From assembly GCA_035632115.1 (NCBI GenBank), contig DASQHL010000144.1:1833-65832 (forward strand): a DNA stretch of 64,000 nt, in the 5' to 3' direction. How positions within the stretch are numbered: position 1 is the stretch's first letter; each line of letters starts with the position of its first letter. Positions 13,262 to 55,316 of this stretch are shown here, in pieces. A program made the position numbers and the translations under genes. The DNA comes from Dehalococcoidia bacterium (GTDB taxonomy: Bacteria; Chloroflexota; Dehalococcoidia; DSTF01; JACRBR01). The notes under the pieces were generated by a model that had not been told where the DNA came from, made no database searches, and saw only the letters and a program-made list of their open reading frames with translations.

Positions 13262-13320
13262 GTGATGAGATCGGGGCGGTCCGAGGCGTGGCTCAGCCCG
13301 GTAGAGCACCTGACTGGGGG
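13262..13320 (+). repeat. Left direct repeat: 59 bp comprising 17 bp of upstream flank plus the 5' 39 nt of tRNA-Pro (through the anticodon GGG)
   Basis: GTGATGAGATCGGGGCGGTCCGAGGCGTGGCTCAGCCCGGTAGAGCACCTGACTGGGGG matches 15357-15415 with 3 mismatches. The partial tRNA has no 3' half. Confidence 0.65.
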
Positions 13321-13555
13321 CTAACTCTGCGCTAACGCTGTGTTCTCGTATCTGCGATCCGAAGCTAAGATCAAGAAATTATCTACCGTTCGCGCGATTT
13401 TCGAGTAGCACCTGACGGGCCGCTCCGCCTTCAAACTGTTCTAGCCCCCTGAACTTACCGCGACGCCCGGACGCGACCGCCGTTGACGCATCGGGGCGTT
13501 AGGCTCTACAACAAGCAACGTGCGAGGTCTCTGACGCGAAGAGGGAGCTGCCAAG

Positions 13556-14065
13556 ATGCCCACGACTGCGGAACCCCCTGATCGGGTCGCGCTATTGCTC
13601 CGGTGTCTCGGCATAGATCCGAGCTCGTTCTACTCGTTTGTCGAATGGGCGTTAGACGAGCAGCTCGTTTCCGCGTTGGCACAAGACGCCGTCGCGCCTC
13701 GCGAACTGTTAGCCAAGCAGGACGGCCTCAGACAGTTTCGCGACATCCTTCGTGAACACACGAAGCGCGATTGGTCTGACAGCGATTTGAAGACCCTGTT
13801 CAGCGCCGTGAGATCCCGATACGAGAAGCACTACCGCGATCCCGTGACGTACGGCGAATACTTGAAGCTACTCTGGTCTAAGCCTCACCGCTGCGCCCAG
13901 TGCGAAGCAGAACCGCCGGGCGTGGTGCTCCACATTGATCATGTCGTGCCCGCGTCGCTCGGAGGCCCATCCAAAGCGCATAACCTCCAGTTCCTTTGTG
14001 CCAAGTGCAACCTCAAGAAGTCAAACAAGCTAGAAGGGGGACAGGCATGGCTCAACTTACAGTGA
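13556..14065 (+). CDS. HNH endonuclease
   Basis: RBS GAGGGAG 8 nt upstream of the ATG. C-terminal CAQCEAE...HIDHVVPASLGG...NLQFLCAKCNLKKSNK is the C-x2-C / H-x-D-H / N / C-x2-C His-Me finger. The N-terminal ~100 aa are unassigned. Confidence 0.75.
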   Translation: MPTTAEPPDRVALLLRCLGIDPSSFYSFVEWALDEQLVSALAQDAVAPRELLAKQDGLRQFRDILREHTKRDWSDSDLKTLFSAVRSRYEKHYRDPVTYGEYLKLLWSKPHRCAQCEAEPPGVVLHIDHVVPASLGGPSKAHNLQFLCAKCNLKKSNKLEGGQAWLNLQ

Positions 14066-15109
14066 CCGCCCACGTACTGAAACAGAAGGGGTTCGATCTG
14101 TACCTGTTCCCCATGAACTCCGAGCGGCTCAAGCAGATATGCTACGTCACGCCTCAGAGCAAAGACAACCCCGATGAAATTCAGCGAATCCTCGATCCGA
14201 AGCGCGCAAAGGAGATTGGCGAGTACATCAAGGATCACACGTCAATTCTCCCCAACGCGCTTGTGGTTAGCCTCACGGACGACGTTGTTGTTAGGGAGTC
14301 GGGTCGTGAAGGAGAGGTAGCAATAGAGTTCCCTGACCACGCCGGCAAGTTCGCGTATGTGCTCGACGGTCAGCACAGGCTCGCGGGCTTTGAGTACAGC
14401 GACGGGGTGGAGTTTCGATTTGCCCGTCGTCGCGCTATACAAGGCGGACGAGCACTTACGCGGCAAGGTGTTTGCCGATATCAACAGCAAGCAAGTCAAA
14501 GTCTCGGACGTTCATCTTCTTTCTCTCTACTACAAGATCAAAGAACTTCCGTCCGACTCCGCCGCAACGATGGACGTGATCCAGCGATTGGCGACTGACG
14601 CCGACTCTCCGCTCGCAGGCAAGATCAAGACGAGCGATGACGACAAGGGAGCCTGGGTGACAAACAAGCACATGAAGTTGTGCGTGGGGCCTCACACGGA
14701 AAGCGGCGGCATCCTGTATGGTCTCAATTCCCCTGCGGCTCAAGCGCAAGTCATGAAGGAATACCTGAAGGGCATTCAGCGTATGTGGCCCGAGGCCTGG
14801 GGTGACAACAAGAATTACATGCTCACGCGACCGATGGGCATGGAACTTATGCTGAGTGTGTTCGCCGCCGTGTCGCACCGATGCGATCTCAATCTCGGCC
14901 GCCAGTACACCGCGGAGAACTTCGAGAAGTCACTCGCGCCACTCAAGGACTGCGAGATCGAGATTCCGGGAGGCGGGAAACTCACCCTCACTTGGCAGCG
15001 AGGCCCATTCGGCACTCTGACTGGAAGGGCGGGGCGCAAGTTGGTTCAGAGGCAACTCAATGACCGGCTCCGCGCCGCCGACGAAAACAGCGCGTCTCAT
15101 GGCACGTAA
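14047..15109 (+). CDS. DGQHR-domain (DndB/ParB-like) protein, interrupted by a +1 frameshift near 14405
   Basis: Start MAQLTVTAH with AGGGGGA RBS, overlapping the HNH stop by 19 nt. FAYVLDGQHRLAGFEYSDGVEF reads to about 14405, then DLPVVALYKADEHLRGKVFADINSKQVKV... continues in the +1 frame to 15109. Total about 354 aa, matching DndB-family length. The junction lies next to a GGGG run. Confidence 0.7.
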
Positions 15110-15136
15110 TCGCCGGTCGCTCGCCGCCAGGCAGAA

Positions 15137-15168
15137 AGGTCAGTGATCCTCTTCGACTCCACTGACCT
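15137..15168 (+). terminator. Hairpin (9-bp perfect stem AGGTCAGTG/CACTGACCT, 14-nt loop) 28 nt after the DGQHR stop
   Basis: Inverted repeat read directly from the sequence. No T-tract, which may be normal in a high-GC genome. Confidence 0.3.
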
Positions 15169-15356
15169 TCGGTCATCCAGCTTGGAAACCAACACCCGGG
15201 CGTAAAGAGGGTGTCCATAAAATCGCCGGGCGATCTTACAGACGCCTCCCTCGCCCCGCGGCTGTGTCCGGCATTCGCAACATGTGCGCGACCGGAGTGC
15301 GGCAGCGTGGACACGCCGAGACCGTGGACGGGCGTCTGGGCGGGGTGCGTTCGGTC

Positions 15357-15415
15357 GTGATAAGATCGGGGCGGTTCGGGGCGTGGCTCAGCCCGGTAGA
15401 GCACCTGACTGGGGG
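15357..15415 (+). repeat. Right direct repeat (overlaps the promoter-proximal flank and 5' half of the intact tRNA-Pro)
   Basis: GTGATAAGATCGGGGCGGTTCGGGGCGTGGCTCAGCCCGGTAGAGCACCTGACTGGGGG. Confidence 0.65.
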
Positions 15416-15453
15416 TCAGGAGGTCGCTGGTTCGAATCCAGTCGCCCCGACCA
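15377..15453 (+). tRNA. tRNA-Pro (anticodon GGG)
   Basis: CGGGGCGTGGCTCAGCCCGGTAGAGCACCTGACTGGGGGTCAGGAGGTCGCTGGTTCGAATCCAGTCGCCCCGACCA has a 7-bp acceptor stem, anticodon loop CTGGGGG, a T-loop TTCGAAT and an encoded CCA. Confidence 0.9.
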
Positions 15454-15925
15454 TTTTCCACACACCATCTTCGCCGCACGGTGCTGCGCGCTTCCGCGCT
15501 TGACGCCGATCGTGCGTGGGCGCGGCTGATCGCGTTGTCGTCACAGGGCGATGACGCGATGGTGCGCACGGCTTCCGCGCGCGGCGCACGGGCATCGTCC
15601 CCGGGCACGCACGGCCGCGCGCAGGTTCGCGCGATTTGAGTATCTCGTCACAAGCGCGAAGATCGTGCCTCGTTGCCCTTGCCCCCCCAACATCGGACGT
15701 CTGATATACTCGGAGCACGGCCGAATCCGCGAAAGCGGAGCGGGGGAACCAACTTTCGGGGTGAATCTCGCAACGTGCGAGTAGGTCAGCTTCTCAGACC
15801 GAACCCGTCAGCTAACCTCGCAGGCACATGAGAGGGTACAGCACCTCGAGAGCAGGGTGTCTGGCCCTGTCCGTCTTGTTGCCATCGGCCAATGTGGACC
15901 CGGTGTTGCAGCGGAGGTGCCCCGC

Positions 15926-18121
15926 ATGAACCGCCTCGTCATCGTTTCCAATCGTCTTCCCGTAACCGCGCATGTCCAGGACGGCGAGCTGGTCGTCGAG
16001 CCATCGAACGGCGGCCTTGCCACCGGCCTGATCGGTCCGCACGAGCGCTGCGACGGGCTGTGGATCGGCTGGCCGGGCGACCTGCCGCAACTCTCCGGCC
16101 AGCAGCAGCAAGCGCTGACGGCGCGGCTTGACGAGCTGCGCGCCGTCGCCGTGCCGCTCAGCCACCGCGAGGTGAAGGCGTTCTACGAGGATGTTGCGAA
16201 CGGCATCCTCTGGCCCATCTTCCACGACCTCGTGCACCAGGTGCCATCGGATCTGCGCGGCTGGGACACGTTCCGTGCTGCGAACGCGCGGTTTGCGCGC
16301 GCCGCCGCCGCTCGTCGCGAGCCCGGCGACCTGATCTGGGTGCACGATTACCAGCTCGTGCTGGTGCCCGGCATGCTGCGCGAGCTGGCGCCTGACGCGC
16401 GCGTCGGCTTCTTCCTCCACATCCCGTTCCCACCGGAGGGGCTGCTGGGCGTGCTGCCCTGGCGGGAAGAGGTGCTGCGGGGGATGCTCGGCGCGGACCT
16501 GGTGGGCTTCCACACGTACGGGTACCTGCGGCACTTCTGCGAGGCGCTGCGCCGCGTGCTGGGCCTGGACGCGGAGCTCGATGGCGTGACGTACGCCGGA
16601 CGACGGGTGCGCTTCGGCGTGTTCCCGATGGGGGTCGACGCGCAGGCGTGGTCCGCGCGGGGCGACGATCCGGCGGTGCGCGACGAAGCGGCGGCGATCC
16701 GGGCGGACGGTGGCGGCACGAAGCTGCTCGTCGGGATCGATCGGCTGGACTACACGAAGGGGCTGCCGCGGCGGCTGCTGGCGGTGGACCGCGTGCTGAA
16801 GAGCGCGCCGGAGCTGCGCGGCGACCTGCGCCTGATCCAGGTGACGGTGCCGTCGCGGGAGAAGGTGGAAGCGTACGCCGGCCTGCGCCGGCGCATCGAC
16901 GAGATGGTGGGCCGGATCAACAGCCGCTACGCCACGCCGACATCGGCGCCGATCCACCGGATGCACACGTCGCTGTCGCCGGAGCGGATCGCGGCGCTGT
17001 ACCGCGCCGCCGACGTGATGCTGGTGACGCCGCTGCGCGACGGGATGAATCTCGTGGCGAAGGAGTTCGTCGCGACGCGCACGGACGAGGACGGCGTGCT
17101 GGTGCTGAGCAAGTCCGCGGGCGCGGCGGCGGAGCTGGGGCAGGCGCTGCTCGTCAACCCGTACGATATCGACGAAGTGGCAGCCGCCGTGCGGACGGCG
17201 CTGGCGATGCCGCGCGAGGAGCGCCGCGAGCGGATGCGCGCGATGCGGCGGCGTGTCGCGTCCCACGACGTCCACCGCTGGGCGGAGACCTTCATGGATG
17301 AGCTGCGGCGCGACCCACCGGCGGCACCGGCCGTCGTCACCCGGGAGCCGTCGGATGACCTGACGCGCTTCGTCGCGCGCGTCCGCGAGCGGCGCGAGAT
17401 GGCGCTAATCCTCGATTACGACGGCACGCTCATGCCGTTCGCGCCGACGCCCGACGCGGCGCCTCCGGATGCGGAGTTGATCGAGCTGCTGCGGCGGCTG
17501 GCTGATCGGCCGGGCATCCGGGTGCACGTGGTCAGTGGCCGCCCGCGAGAGACGCTCGCTGAGTGGCTGGGCGCGCTGCCGATCGGGCTGCACGCGGAGC
17601 ATGGGTTCGCGTCGCGGATGCGGCCGGAGGCGGCGTGGATCGAGCATGGCGGCCCGGCGACGGACTGGAAGCGCCGGGTGCAGCCGATCCTGAAGCATTT
17701 CGCCGGGACGACGCCGGGCGCGTTCGTCGAAGAGAAGCGCGTGTCGCTCGCGTGGCACTACCGCGCAGCCGCGGCCGACACGCGCGACCGGGACTTCGTG
17801 GCATCGCAGGCGCGCGAGCTGCGGCTGGTACTGGAGGAGACGCTGGCGAGCCTGCCGGTGGAGATCCTCCCGGGCAACATGGTGCTGGAGGTGCGGGCGC
17901 GCGGCGTCAGCAAGGCGAACGTTGTGCCGCTGATCCTGGCGCAGGGCGACGGACGCGAGGCCGTGCTGGCGATGGGCGACGACCGCACGGACGAGGACCT
18001 GTTCGCGGCGGTGCCGGAGGGCAGCCTCACCGTGCACGTCGGCGAGGGCGACACGCGCGCGCTCTACCGCGTGCCGGACGTGGCCAGCGCGCGCCAGTTG
18101 CTGGCGACGCTCATCGACTGA
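15926..18121 (+). CDS. otsA: Bifunctional trehalose-6-phosphate synthase (GT20, OtsA) / trehalose-6-phosphate phosphatase (HAD, OtsB) fusion
   Basis: The N-terminal ~470 aa carry GT20 motifs (LIWVHDYQL, the FFLHIPFP region). The C-terminal ~270 aa begin ILDYDGTLMPF, the HAD DxD motif. RBS GGAGGTG. Confidence 0.85.
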   Translation: MNRLVIVSNRLPVTAHVQDGELVVEPSNGGLATGLIGPHERCDGLWIGWPGDLPQLSGQQQQALTARLDELRAVAVPLSHREVKAFYEDVANGILWPIFHDLVHQVPSDLRGWDTFRAANARFARAAAARREPGDLIWVHDYQLVLVPGMLRELAPDARVGFFLHIPFPPEGLLGVLPWREEVLRGMLGADLVGFHTYGYLRHFCEALRRVLGLDAELDGVTYAGRRVRFGVFPMGVDAQAWSARGDDPAVRDEAAAIRADGGGTKLLVGIDRLDYTKGLPRRLLAVDRVLKSAPELRGDLRLIQVTVPSREKVEAYAGLRRRIDEMVGRINSRYATPTSAPIHRMHTSLSPERIAALYRAADVMLVTPLRDGMNLVAKEFVATRTDEDGVLVLSKSAGAAAELGQALLVNPYDIDEVAAAVRTALAMPREERRERMRAMRRRVASHDVHRWAETFMDELRRDPPAAPAVVTREPSDDLTRFVARVRERREMALILDYDGTLMPFAPTPDAAPPDAELIELLRRLADRPGIRVHVVSGRPRETLAEWLGALPIGLHAEHGFASRMRPEAAWIEHGGPATDWKRRVQPILKHFAGTTPGAFVEEKRVSLAWHYRAAAADTRDRDFVASQARELRLVLEETLASLPVEILPGNMVLEVRARGVSKANVVPLILAQGDGREAVLAMGDDRTDEDLFAAVPEGSLTVHVGEGDTRALYRVPDVASARQLLATLID

Positions 18122-36379: not shown

Positions 36380-36550
36380 GGCCATCGCTTATACGGGGCC
36401 GGGACACGCTGCCCGGAGGATCTCGACCGGGCCATCAAGTTACCTCCGCCCATGGACCATCGGCTGCTCGGCAGGTCAGACCTGCGCCGCCAGTCTCCGC
36501 TTCACAGCCGCCCCCGACGAGCGTATGCTGCGCGCAGTAGGAGGGGCGCC

Positions 36551-36889
36551 ATGGCGACGTACCAGTTCGAGCGCGACGTTCGCACGCCGTACTCGGAGAG
36601 CTACACCATCGAGGCGGACGGCGACGAGACTGGCCGCGTCGACCTGCACTTCACGGGCCAGGGCTTCGTCCACGCGACGCTCTGCGTGCCGGCCGATGCC
36701 GACGACGACGAGATCCAGGAGTTGATCGCGGAGGTCGATGAGCGGCTGGTGCTGACGACCGACCCGGAGCGGGCGGACTTCATCGTCACCGTGTGGCGTG
36801 GCACGCCGGCCGGCGTGTACTCAGAAGACGACGAGGAGGGCGAGGACGACGACGAGGAGCCGCGCGGGAATGGGCGGGCGCCGGCCTAG
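36551..36889 (+). CDS. Small acidic hypothetical protein
   Basis: GGAGGG RBS. 112 aa ending in a D/E-rich tail. Confidence 0.5.
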   Translation: MATYQFERDVRTPYSESYTIEADGDETGRVDLHFTGQGFVHATLCVPADADDDEIQELIAEVDERLVLTTDPERADFIVTVWRGTPAGVYSEDDEEGEDDDEEPRGNGRAPA

Positions 36890-54410: not shown

Positions 54411-54480
54411 AGCTCTTGAGAGGTAGTGTGTTAGAGTTCGTCGAGGCTAGACGCTGCGGTGTCTCAAGCGGGAGGTAGGG

Positions 54481-54876
54481 ATGGAACCAGAAGGCGAGCT
54501 CTTCGTTTCAGACTGGATCCGGCGGCAGACCGAGGGCGCGAGACTGAGCCCGAAGGCTACGAGGTTCCTAACGGACATCGTGGTGGAGGCATTGGACAGT
54601 CGTCTGGCGGAGCCGGAAGCGAGATTCGCGCTCAGTTCTTTCCCGACCTCAAGCCGACTAGGCTCGTCTGAAGCCAGTGCGATGCTCGATCGATCCCCGC
54701 TCGAGTACGTCGTGAGGGACCTGGTCACGCCCATCGGGCCAATTGTTGCGAACGAGCAGGTCTTGCTGGCCGATTTGCTGGTTGCCATCAATCTGAAATG
54801 GTGCAGTGTGTGGCCGTTTTGCAGGAAGCCGGGTGGTTCGCTGGACCTGTCTCAAGCATTCCAACCGGTTAGGTAG
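54481..54876 (+). CDS. Hypothetical cytoplasmic protein (islet ORF 1)
   Basis: RBS GGGAGGTAGGG-ATG. 131 aa. No recognizable motif. Confidence 0.4.
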   Translation: MEPEGELFVSDWIRRQTEGARLSPKATRFLTDIVVEALDSRLAEPEARFALSSFPTSSRLGSSEASAMLDRSPLEYVVRDLVTPIGPIVANEQVLLADLLVAINLKWCSVWPFCRKPGGSLDLSQAFQPVR

Positions 54877-54941
54877 GTTTACACGTGGCTACCAACGCAG
54901 GAGATGCTGAGGGCGAAACGCCAAAAACCGGAGTGACCGTC

Positions 54942-55316
54942 ATGGGTAACGCTGATGATGACAGGATGGAAAACGCGAGGAAGGCGCTTGAATTCGCCGA
55001 CGCTTGGGCCAAGCTTATATCGAGCCTGTCCACAGGGACGCTAGTGTTGAGCGCGACGTTCATTAAGGATCTCTTCCCGGATGCGCACGCCTTTGCTCTT
55101 AAGAAGGTGCTCTTTGCCTCGTGGAGTGCGCTCGGGTTGGCGGCCGCCCTCGGCCTCATGGTGCTGGGAGCTCTTGTTGCCGAATTGGATGGCTACAAGA
55201 CGGGCGGGCGCCCAAGCGTCTTCGCTGGGGCGATCCAGTTTTGGGCGATTGCGCAGTTCGTGATGTTTGCTCTGGGCGTCTTACTGTTTGCCATATTCAT
55301 CGGGAAGAACCTCTGA
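54942..55316 (+). CDS. Small membrane protein with two C-terminal TM helices (islet ORF 2)
   Basis: GGAG 8 nt upstream of the ATG. Soluble N-terminal ~55 aa, then VLFASWSALGLAAALGLMVLGALVAEL and AIQFWAIAQFVMFALGVLLFAIFIG. Confidence 0.4.
   Translation: MGNADDDRMENARKALEFADAWAKLISSLSTGTLVLSATFIKDLFPDAHAFALKKVLFASWSALGLAAALGLMVLGALVAELDGYKTGGRPSVFAGAIQFWAIAQFVMFALGVLLFAIFIGKNL

Follow-up and report, generated by a model that had tools for sequence, protein, structure and literature searches.

To our knowledge, almost all elements that integrate into transfer RNA (tRNA) genes replace the 3′ end of the gene and leave the host promoter to drive it, and the opposite, 5′ polarity is rare. An element which replaces the promoter together with the 5′ half must carry a working tRNA promoter. 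The pSAM2-type elements of actinomycetes integrate at tRNA-Pro, where the segment of identity begins at the anticodon loop and is about 58 bp long; they duplicate the 3′ half of the gene and encode Int, Xis and Rep. Here a stretch of 64,000 nucleotides from contig DASQHL010000144.1 of a Dehalococcoidia bacterium (the window) is described, in which a small islet of low GC (guanine plus cytosine) content adjoins a tRNA-Pro(GGG) gene. With a probability that we put at roughly 0.6, the segment from 13321 to 15376 is a small non-autonomous integrative cassette which was inserted into this gene by site-specific recombination and moved in trans. It differs from the tRNA islands made by their own integrase in two respects, as no integrase lies inside it beside the attachment (att) site and the duplicated part of the tRNA gene is not the 3′ one.

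In Dehalococcoides, islands without an integrase occur in tandem arrays at ssrA (PMC3146451). By analogy, the architecture at tRNA-Pro would work like a cis-mobilizable element (CIME), and the ssrA islands appear to be its nearest precedent. Shared with the CIMEs, these islands included, are repeats of the attL/attR type, the lack of recombination and transfer genes, and tandem units at one RNA gene. Movement by the recombinase of a related element has been proposed for them as well, and the broad host group is likewise Chloroflexota/Dehalococcoidia (PMC3146451). In contrast to the ssrA islands, where a 20-bp 3′ end is repeated, the target here is a tRNA gene and the duplicated part is its 5′ half with the promoter-like sequence. 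The units are also much smaller (1.5–2.9 kb, one to three genes), they share an arm of 92 nt, and no cognate integrase was seen.

Three further systems have features in common with the locus. In Klebsiella, islands have been found at the 5′ end of a tRNA-Arg gene (arg2) with the D-loop as sublocation (10.1101/2020.11.02.365908). They too are integrated upstream of the tRNA, duplicate its 5′ part and have the rare mirror polarity, but they carry their own tyrosine integrase and their repeat ends in the D-loop, whereas the repeat described here ends in the anticodon loop, includes promoter-like sequence and comes without an integrase. The tycheposons of Prochlorococcus (10.1101/2020.12.28.424599) resemble it by cargo beside a tRNA gene, partial tRNA copies between units and defence genes among the cargo. 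They have their own recombinase and replication genes, none of which is present in the islet, and a 5′ polarity is not mentioned for them in the available part of that report. Integron cassettes are also small, co-oriented and without their own recombinase, and form arrays downstream of a resident promoter; here intI, attI and attC hairpins are lacking and the recombination site is a tRNA gene. As intI and attC are absent the locus is not an integron, and neither intI nor another recombinase was observed beside the arrays of the window and of the related loci L093, L094 and L100 treated below. What appears to be new is the combination of a 5′ polarity reaching to the anticodon loop, a presumed promoter donation, a conserved 92-nt arm and units of one to three genes. 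Such units, an attachment site with one or two genes, are near the smallest conceivable integrative elements, and they are found, with changing and mostly defence-type cargo and also in tandem, in an uncultured lineage of soil and sediment.

The duplicated tRNA-Pro 5′ half and the islet

A repeat search of the window yielded a 59-nt direct repeat with a left, attL-like copy at 13262–13320 and a right, attR-like copy at 15357–15415, both on the plus strand like all features of the islet given below. The two copies are identical at 56 of the 59 positions and are spaced by 2095 nt. Their mismatches are confined to repeat positions 6, 20 and 23, which leaves the last 36 nt without a difference. 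A 31-mer of the repeat occurs twice in the window when up to three mismatches are allowed, compared to an expectation of 0.00 from 100 shuffles. Nucleotides 1–39 of tRNA-Pro(GGG), preceded by 20 nt from upstream of the gene, make up the repeat. An earlier, sequence-only reading had counted 17 bp of flank, which was too few; it had named the tRNA positions correctly and had placed their end at the anticodon, while the repeat in fact runs two bases further, to where the anticodon loop ends. Immediately beyond this point the left copy continues with CTAAC and the tRNA gene with TCAGG.

At the right end of the islet stands the intact tRNA-Pro(GGG) gene (15377–15453), as that reading had said; it is called by ARAGORN and is matched by the Rfam tRNA model with 65.9 bits. 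The displaced 5′ fragment (13282–13320, nucleotides 1–39) is not called as a tRNA by ARAGORN, and it has an A in place of G3, which would mispair with C70 of the acceptor stem. The 3′ half of tRNA-Pro occurs a single time in the window, and the same holds for L093 and L094. It is thus only 5′ halves that are duplicated and never 3′ halves, opposite to the usual 3′ polarity. The islet is bounded as a tRNA-integrated island is, by direct repeats of a tRNA segment one copy of which lies inside an intact tRNA gene. The tRNA-Pro genes of the related loci are not the same throughout: the T-stem of the window (15422–15453) differs from those of L093 (7945–7969) and L094 (10723–10747) by a compensatory pair, GCTGG/CCAGT versus GCAGG/CCTGT. 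The 39-nt 5′ halves of the three are identical.

The flank part of the repeat holds a promoter-like sequence. Upstream of each tRNA-Pro copy of the window, L093, L094, L095 and L100, at -19 to -11, stands an extended -10-like motif of the general form TGnTAnnnT, with versions such as TGnTAAGAT and TGATAAACT. In front of the intact gene of the window it reads TGATAAGAT (15358–15366). The displaced copy has TGATGAGAT (13263–13271), with an A to G exchange at hexamer position 2, and its hexamer TGAGAT is the only one among the copies with a G there. GTGATAAACTC is common to the intact tRNAs of L093 and L094 and to the inner fragment of L100, and the leftmost fragments carry varied versions. This pattern fits successive insertions, since each element would bring its own promoter and 5′ half and push the earlier one to the left. 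As a strict sigma-70 scan found no promoter, it is only by the conserved extended -10-like motif that a promoter function is suggested.

The segment between the repeats has a GC content of 58.4%, compared to 69.7% and 70.8% in the two flanks and roughly 70% in the genome, and is the only marked GC trough within the 64 kb, a composition foreign to the host. Its genes have a GC content at third codon positions (GC3) of 0.70–0.73, versus about 0.9 in host genes. The first description of the locus, a low-GC islet of some 2 kb between att-like repeats of the tRNA-Pro 5′ half, is thus borne out, and so is the absence of an integrase or excisionase from it. Only two of its genes are credible, both on the tRNA strand, and no recombinase of any kind is among them. 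The first cargo gene (13556–14065) codes for an HNH endonuclease of 169 amino acids (Pfam HNH_5 1.7e-11, HNH 7.7e-10). The second (14047–15109) is a DGQHR (DndB/DpdB-like) pseudogene in which a +1 frameshift, one extra base at about 14416, separates frame A (14047–14598) from frame B (14327–15109). When the frames are joined the product of 353 amino acids is recognized as DndB by Pfam (6e-14) and as DpdB by PADLOC (2.8e-28), and it matches intact proteins of 345–353 amino acids with 50–91% identity from many phyla, archaea included. The identical frameshift is present in the Logan unitig L001 (SRR6788488), which may stem from the same reads as the window. This unitig spans the segment between the repeats and was considered as evidence for a circular form; it was rejected as such, because it ends 30 nt into each repeat as is expected of a k=31 unitig.

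Elsewhere, across bacterial phyla and in archaea, an HNH gene overlaps with a DGQHR gene in a conserved pair (L003/L004, L097–L099 and the contig P0002). There the pair adjoins BrxL, a restriction-modification pair of the NotI type or an SLFN-like gene; it is not located near tRNAs and has no flanking DNA in common with the window. With such neighbours the pair may represent a defence module of two genes that has not been described. Partner genes of the Dnd and Dpd systems (dndACDE, dpdA/dpdC and the rest) were found neither at the islet nor at homologous loci, the sole partner being the HNH nuclease, so the cargo falls short of a complete Dnd or Dpd system in spite of its DGQHR/DndB/DpdB-type protein. 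Directly after the stop codon of the cargo follows a hairpin-forming motif of 67 nt (15116–15182) with a 10-bp stem and a folding z-score of -1.85. It was found by BLAST with 88% identity in L094 (7589–7655), where it comes after a DsrE-like gene and just upstream of the tRNA fragment.

A conserved junction with changing cargo

Directly behind the tRNA fragment of the window lies a conserved block of 92 nt (13321–13412), the putative P′ arm of an attP site. Metagenome contigs were scanned for the tRNA-Pro 5′ half followed by any base except T at the opening of the anticodon stem, which gave four loci. All four have the same junction, then about 92 nt homologous to 13321–13412 of the window, then unrelated DNA. 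The tRNA half and the block thus recur outside the window, on contigs of uncultured Chloroflexota. An nhmmer model built from an alignment of the block copies (A1) matches the window, L093, L094, L095, L096 and two sites in L100–L103 with E values of 1e-17 to 1e-27. The junction itself, CTGGGGG directly followed by CTA, is identical in L093, L094, L095, L096 and L100–L109. There are at least six copies of the junction and the arm with differing cargo, and structurally the units are bounded by putative attL and attR sites as CIMEs are. The block had no match in viral contigs or in phage and plasmid collections, and the tRNA half had none in viral contigs.

Two other identities of the block were considered. 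As a structured RNA it was rejected, as it has no Rfam match and no compensatory pairs and its covariation term is positive. Its minus strand (13321–13440 in the window) is open in five of six copies (…ARTVDN..L.SDRR…AQS*), with the invariant CTA at the junction as the stop codon, and this recalls dsiB, which overlaps attL in Dehalococcoides (PMC3146451). The tail of a recombinase gene on this strand is an idea without support, as an exhaustive HMMER search with the 39-residue peptide of the window among 1.84 billion proteins, a search of low power, gave no homologue.

The cargo behind the block changes from locus to locus. It is an FAD monooxygenase in L093, a protein of 760 amino acids with a nucleoside-deoxyribosyltransferase-like (Nuc_deoxyrib_tr-like) N-terminus in L094, and a split N6 DNA methyltransferase in L096. 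L093 and L094 are complete and show fragment, block, a cargo of 1.6 or 2.9 kb, promoter-like stretch and intact tRNA-Pro in this order, with a perfect repeat of 43–44 nt. No recombinase open reading frame (ORF) is contained in the complete units of 1.5–2.9 kb with their one to three genes. Homing driven by the HNH nuclease was rejected as the cause of the arrangement, the units of L093 and L094 being without an HNH gene. In the five small units (window, L093, L094, L096 and unit A of L100) all ORFs run in the direction of the tRNA, an outcome with a chance probability of about 3% for independent units; this co-oriented stacking is seen in a small sample with one two-unit array.

The window, L093, L094 and L100–L109 have an amidohydrolase and a DUF5656 gene on their left in common, with 77–84% DNA identity, and the hosts of these loci are therefore of the same kind as that of the window. 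What adjoins the fragment on its left and the tRNA on its right is a different gene at every locus. L100–L109 are a population of near-identical strains, and in L100–L102 two units of fragment plus block stand in tandem (15823–15956 and 17479–17612). Their fragments carry, as seen in L100, a lineage-specific variant of the tRNA with a GCGC D-stem. The cargo of unit A, between the tandem fragments of L100, is a DUF1801 gene and the remnant of an HNH gene. Behind the second block there is a longer segment encoding a Na/H exchanger and a replication initiator of the Rep_trans type, and the locus ends before any integrase or tRNA; the Rep_trans protein has one weak match only among viral contigs. 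Half of the ten assemblies of this population end at the junction of fragment and block or within 5 nt of it, namely L103 with the last base of fragment 2 and L104–L107 at 4–5 nt into block a. As assemblies stop where co-existing strains diverge, these ends suggest a cassette polymorphism among the strains of the population.

A related arrangement was noticed at another tRNA. In L090 (17994–18122) the 5′ fragment is tRNA-Thr(CGT)-like; here too it stops with the final base of the anticodon loop, and the DNA that comes next is distantly related to the 92-nt block. Flanking it are three CAGTTATCTGGT direct repeats, which may be binding sites of a recombinase.

Proposed movement in trans and its alternatives

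The proposed mechanism starts from an incoming circle with an attP of about 200 bp, which would comprise the promoter-like region, a copy of tRNA nucleotides 1–39 and the 92-nt arm. The crossover would take place at the end of the anticodon loop or just left of it. Since the identity must span from the start of the gene to the crossover, and is lost after the final base of the anticodon loop, the crossover is most likely located in or next to the loop. After integration the tRNA would work with the promoter and 5′ half supplied by the element (15357–15415), and the original promoter and 5′ half (13262–13320) would be displaced upstream, facing the 92-nt arm and the co-oriented cargo. The predicted attB junction is …GGCCAGGTGATGAGATCGGGGCGGTCCGAGGCG…CTGGGGG of the window joined to TCAGGAGGTCGC, and the predicted attP junction is the right end of the islet (15110–15415) joined to CTAACTCTGCGC. 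Transcription of the cargo from the displaced tRNA promoter is a speculation with which the co-orientation of the ORFs is compatible.

As the cassette encodes no recombinase, its mover must be an enzyme encoded elsewhere, probably that of a larger, related element which has the same arm. One candidate for such an autonomous relative is found in L100, in the segment with Rep_trans that follows the same block there. Integration at the anticodon loop by an element which supplies the 5′ half had been proposed from the window alone, and the same junction, the same 92-nt block and the changing cargo in relatives support it, with the crossover deduced from the end of identity. A decayed remnant and cargo mobilised in trans had been named as the two alternatives; the pattern across the loci fits a family of minimal cassettes with movement in trans better than a single island in decay, and the window copy itself shows signs of decay. 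If the movement in trans is true it would provide a route for the exchange of defence genes in Chloroflexota, and it would point to a recombinase with a directly testable site preference, as attP and attB are defined to the base. It is doubtful, in our opinion, whether one can go further and regard tRNA-Pro as the docking site of an integron-like system, in which cassettes without recombinase, made of an attP of about 200 bp and one to three genes, would be inserted in trans at the anticodon loop, a fresh promoter and 5′ half would be handed to the tRNA each time, the displaced promoter would transcribe the cargo, and arrays of mostly defence genes would build up upstream of the tRNA.

A number of results weigh against a cassette moved in trans. 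No recombinase was found in the 64-kb window, where 20 ORFs of unclear function were analysed by Pfam and the others appeared on reading to be housekeeping genes, and none was seen in the examined parts of L093, L094 and L100; the integrase that the sequence-only reading had suggested to seek beyond the islet did not turn up there. The empty tRNA-Pro site which it had suggested to look for in related genomes was not present among the relatives retrieved by OtsAB, encoded on the right flank, and by DUF5656, and no circular junction was found. Neither tRNA-Pro nor the block was within reach in the closest DUF5656 relatives (L110–L112, 91% and 83%). The OtsAB relatives, with 66–76% identity, have kept otsAB and its riboswitch for cyclic di-AMP (c-di-AMP) and have no tRNA-Pro upstream of otsAB, and when genome contigs were scanned with OtsAB for an empty site the best match had 60% identity and no synteny. 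The copies of the block are 60–88% identical to each other, compared to 77–84% for host genes, and this similar divergence leaves room for the vertical inheritance of an old scar. The GC content of the L093 cargo equals that of its host. No motif common to both arms was found, and as the anticodon stem is not repeated in inverted orientation to the right of the junction, there is no evident lambda-like core site. Finally, the frameshifted cargo gene and the two mutations of the displaced copy (the weakened -10 and A3) make it probable that the window copy has lost its activity, and with these disabling mutations it is possibly immobile now.

For the window copy alone, which is probably inactive today, the explanation by a cassette moved in trans overlaps with that by a fixed, decayed remnant of an ordinary integrase-bearing island, from which the integrase and most genes were deleted and in which nothing is mobile. 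The frameshift in the DGQHR gene and the mutated -10 and acceptor stem of the fragment agree with such a remnant, as do the missing integrase in 64 kb and the missing empty site. We nevertheless judge it unlikely, as at least five independent small units have kept both ends and the 92-nt block exactly, with unrelated cargo and no remnant of an integrase. Their exact ends would require repeated and precise deletions, and five small units of this kind without recombinase are explained better by cassettes moved in trans than by five separately decayed islands. Alternatively, the tRNA 5′ half and the block might be an old, vertically inherited duplication or scar, the interior of which was swapped by homologous recombination via the conserved ends. 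Fragment and block do occur in the same neighbourhood, downstream of the amidohydrolase and DUF5656 genes, in several related hosts; besides the divergence of the block and the host-like GC of the L093 cargo, the fragments follow the tRNA variant of their lineage, as the GCGC D-stem of L100 indicates. Against this, the genes which adjoin the unit on either side, before the fragment and after the tRNA, also differ at every locus, two units stand in tandem in L100, and there is a sister arrangement on the tRNA-Thr-like fragment of L090. The -10 types fit successive insertions, the closest relatives have no tRNA at that place, and an inherited scar is considered quite unlikely.

An assembly artefact, that is a chimeric join through a short repeat, has to be thought of as the window comes from a metagenome-assembled genome and as the unitig L001 ends inside both repeats. 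The same architecture is found in independent JGI, ENA and NCBI assemblies of other samples, the two repeat copies differ at three positions and have distinct flanks, and the ends of L001 at 30 nt into the identical part are those of a k=31 unitig, which makes such an artefact highly improbable.

Surroundings of the islet and other features of the window

The names on close homologues of the genes in the window point to uncultured Chloroflexota/Dehalococcoidia as the host. To the left of the islet there is a LysM/M23 peptidase gene, then the genes for the DUF5656 membrane protein and the amidohydrolase, and to the right the c-di-AMP riboswitch and a fused otsA-otsB gene. Read by eye, the other ORFs of the window have the look of housekeeping genes, among them those for MetRS and GlnA, the Nuo operon and cobalamin genes.

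Three further observations concern other parts of the window. The c-di-AMP riboswitch is of the ydaO type (15709–15841, 98.9 bits) and lies directly upstream of the fused trehalose-6-phosphate synthase/phosphatase gene (15926–18121); the same leader is present in the relative L086 (about 900–1030), the OtsAB of which is 76% identical. Between the nuo operon and glnA, in the kilobase with the second-lowest GC content of the window, two small ORFs of 141 and 147 amino acids with a GC3 of about 0.7 and no Pfam match lie next to each other (54451–55313). An ORF of 169 amino acids at 36380–36886 shows a weak, sub-threshold Pfam match (E 1.8e-4) to the TBP-like domain of TOTE conflict systems.

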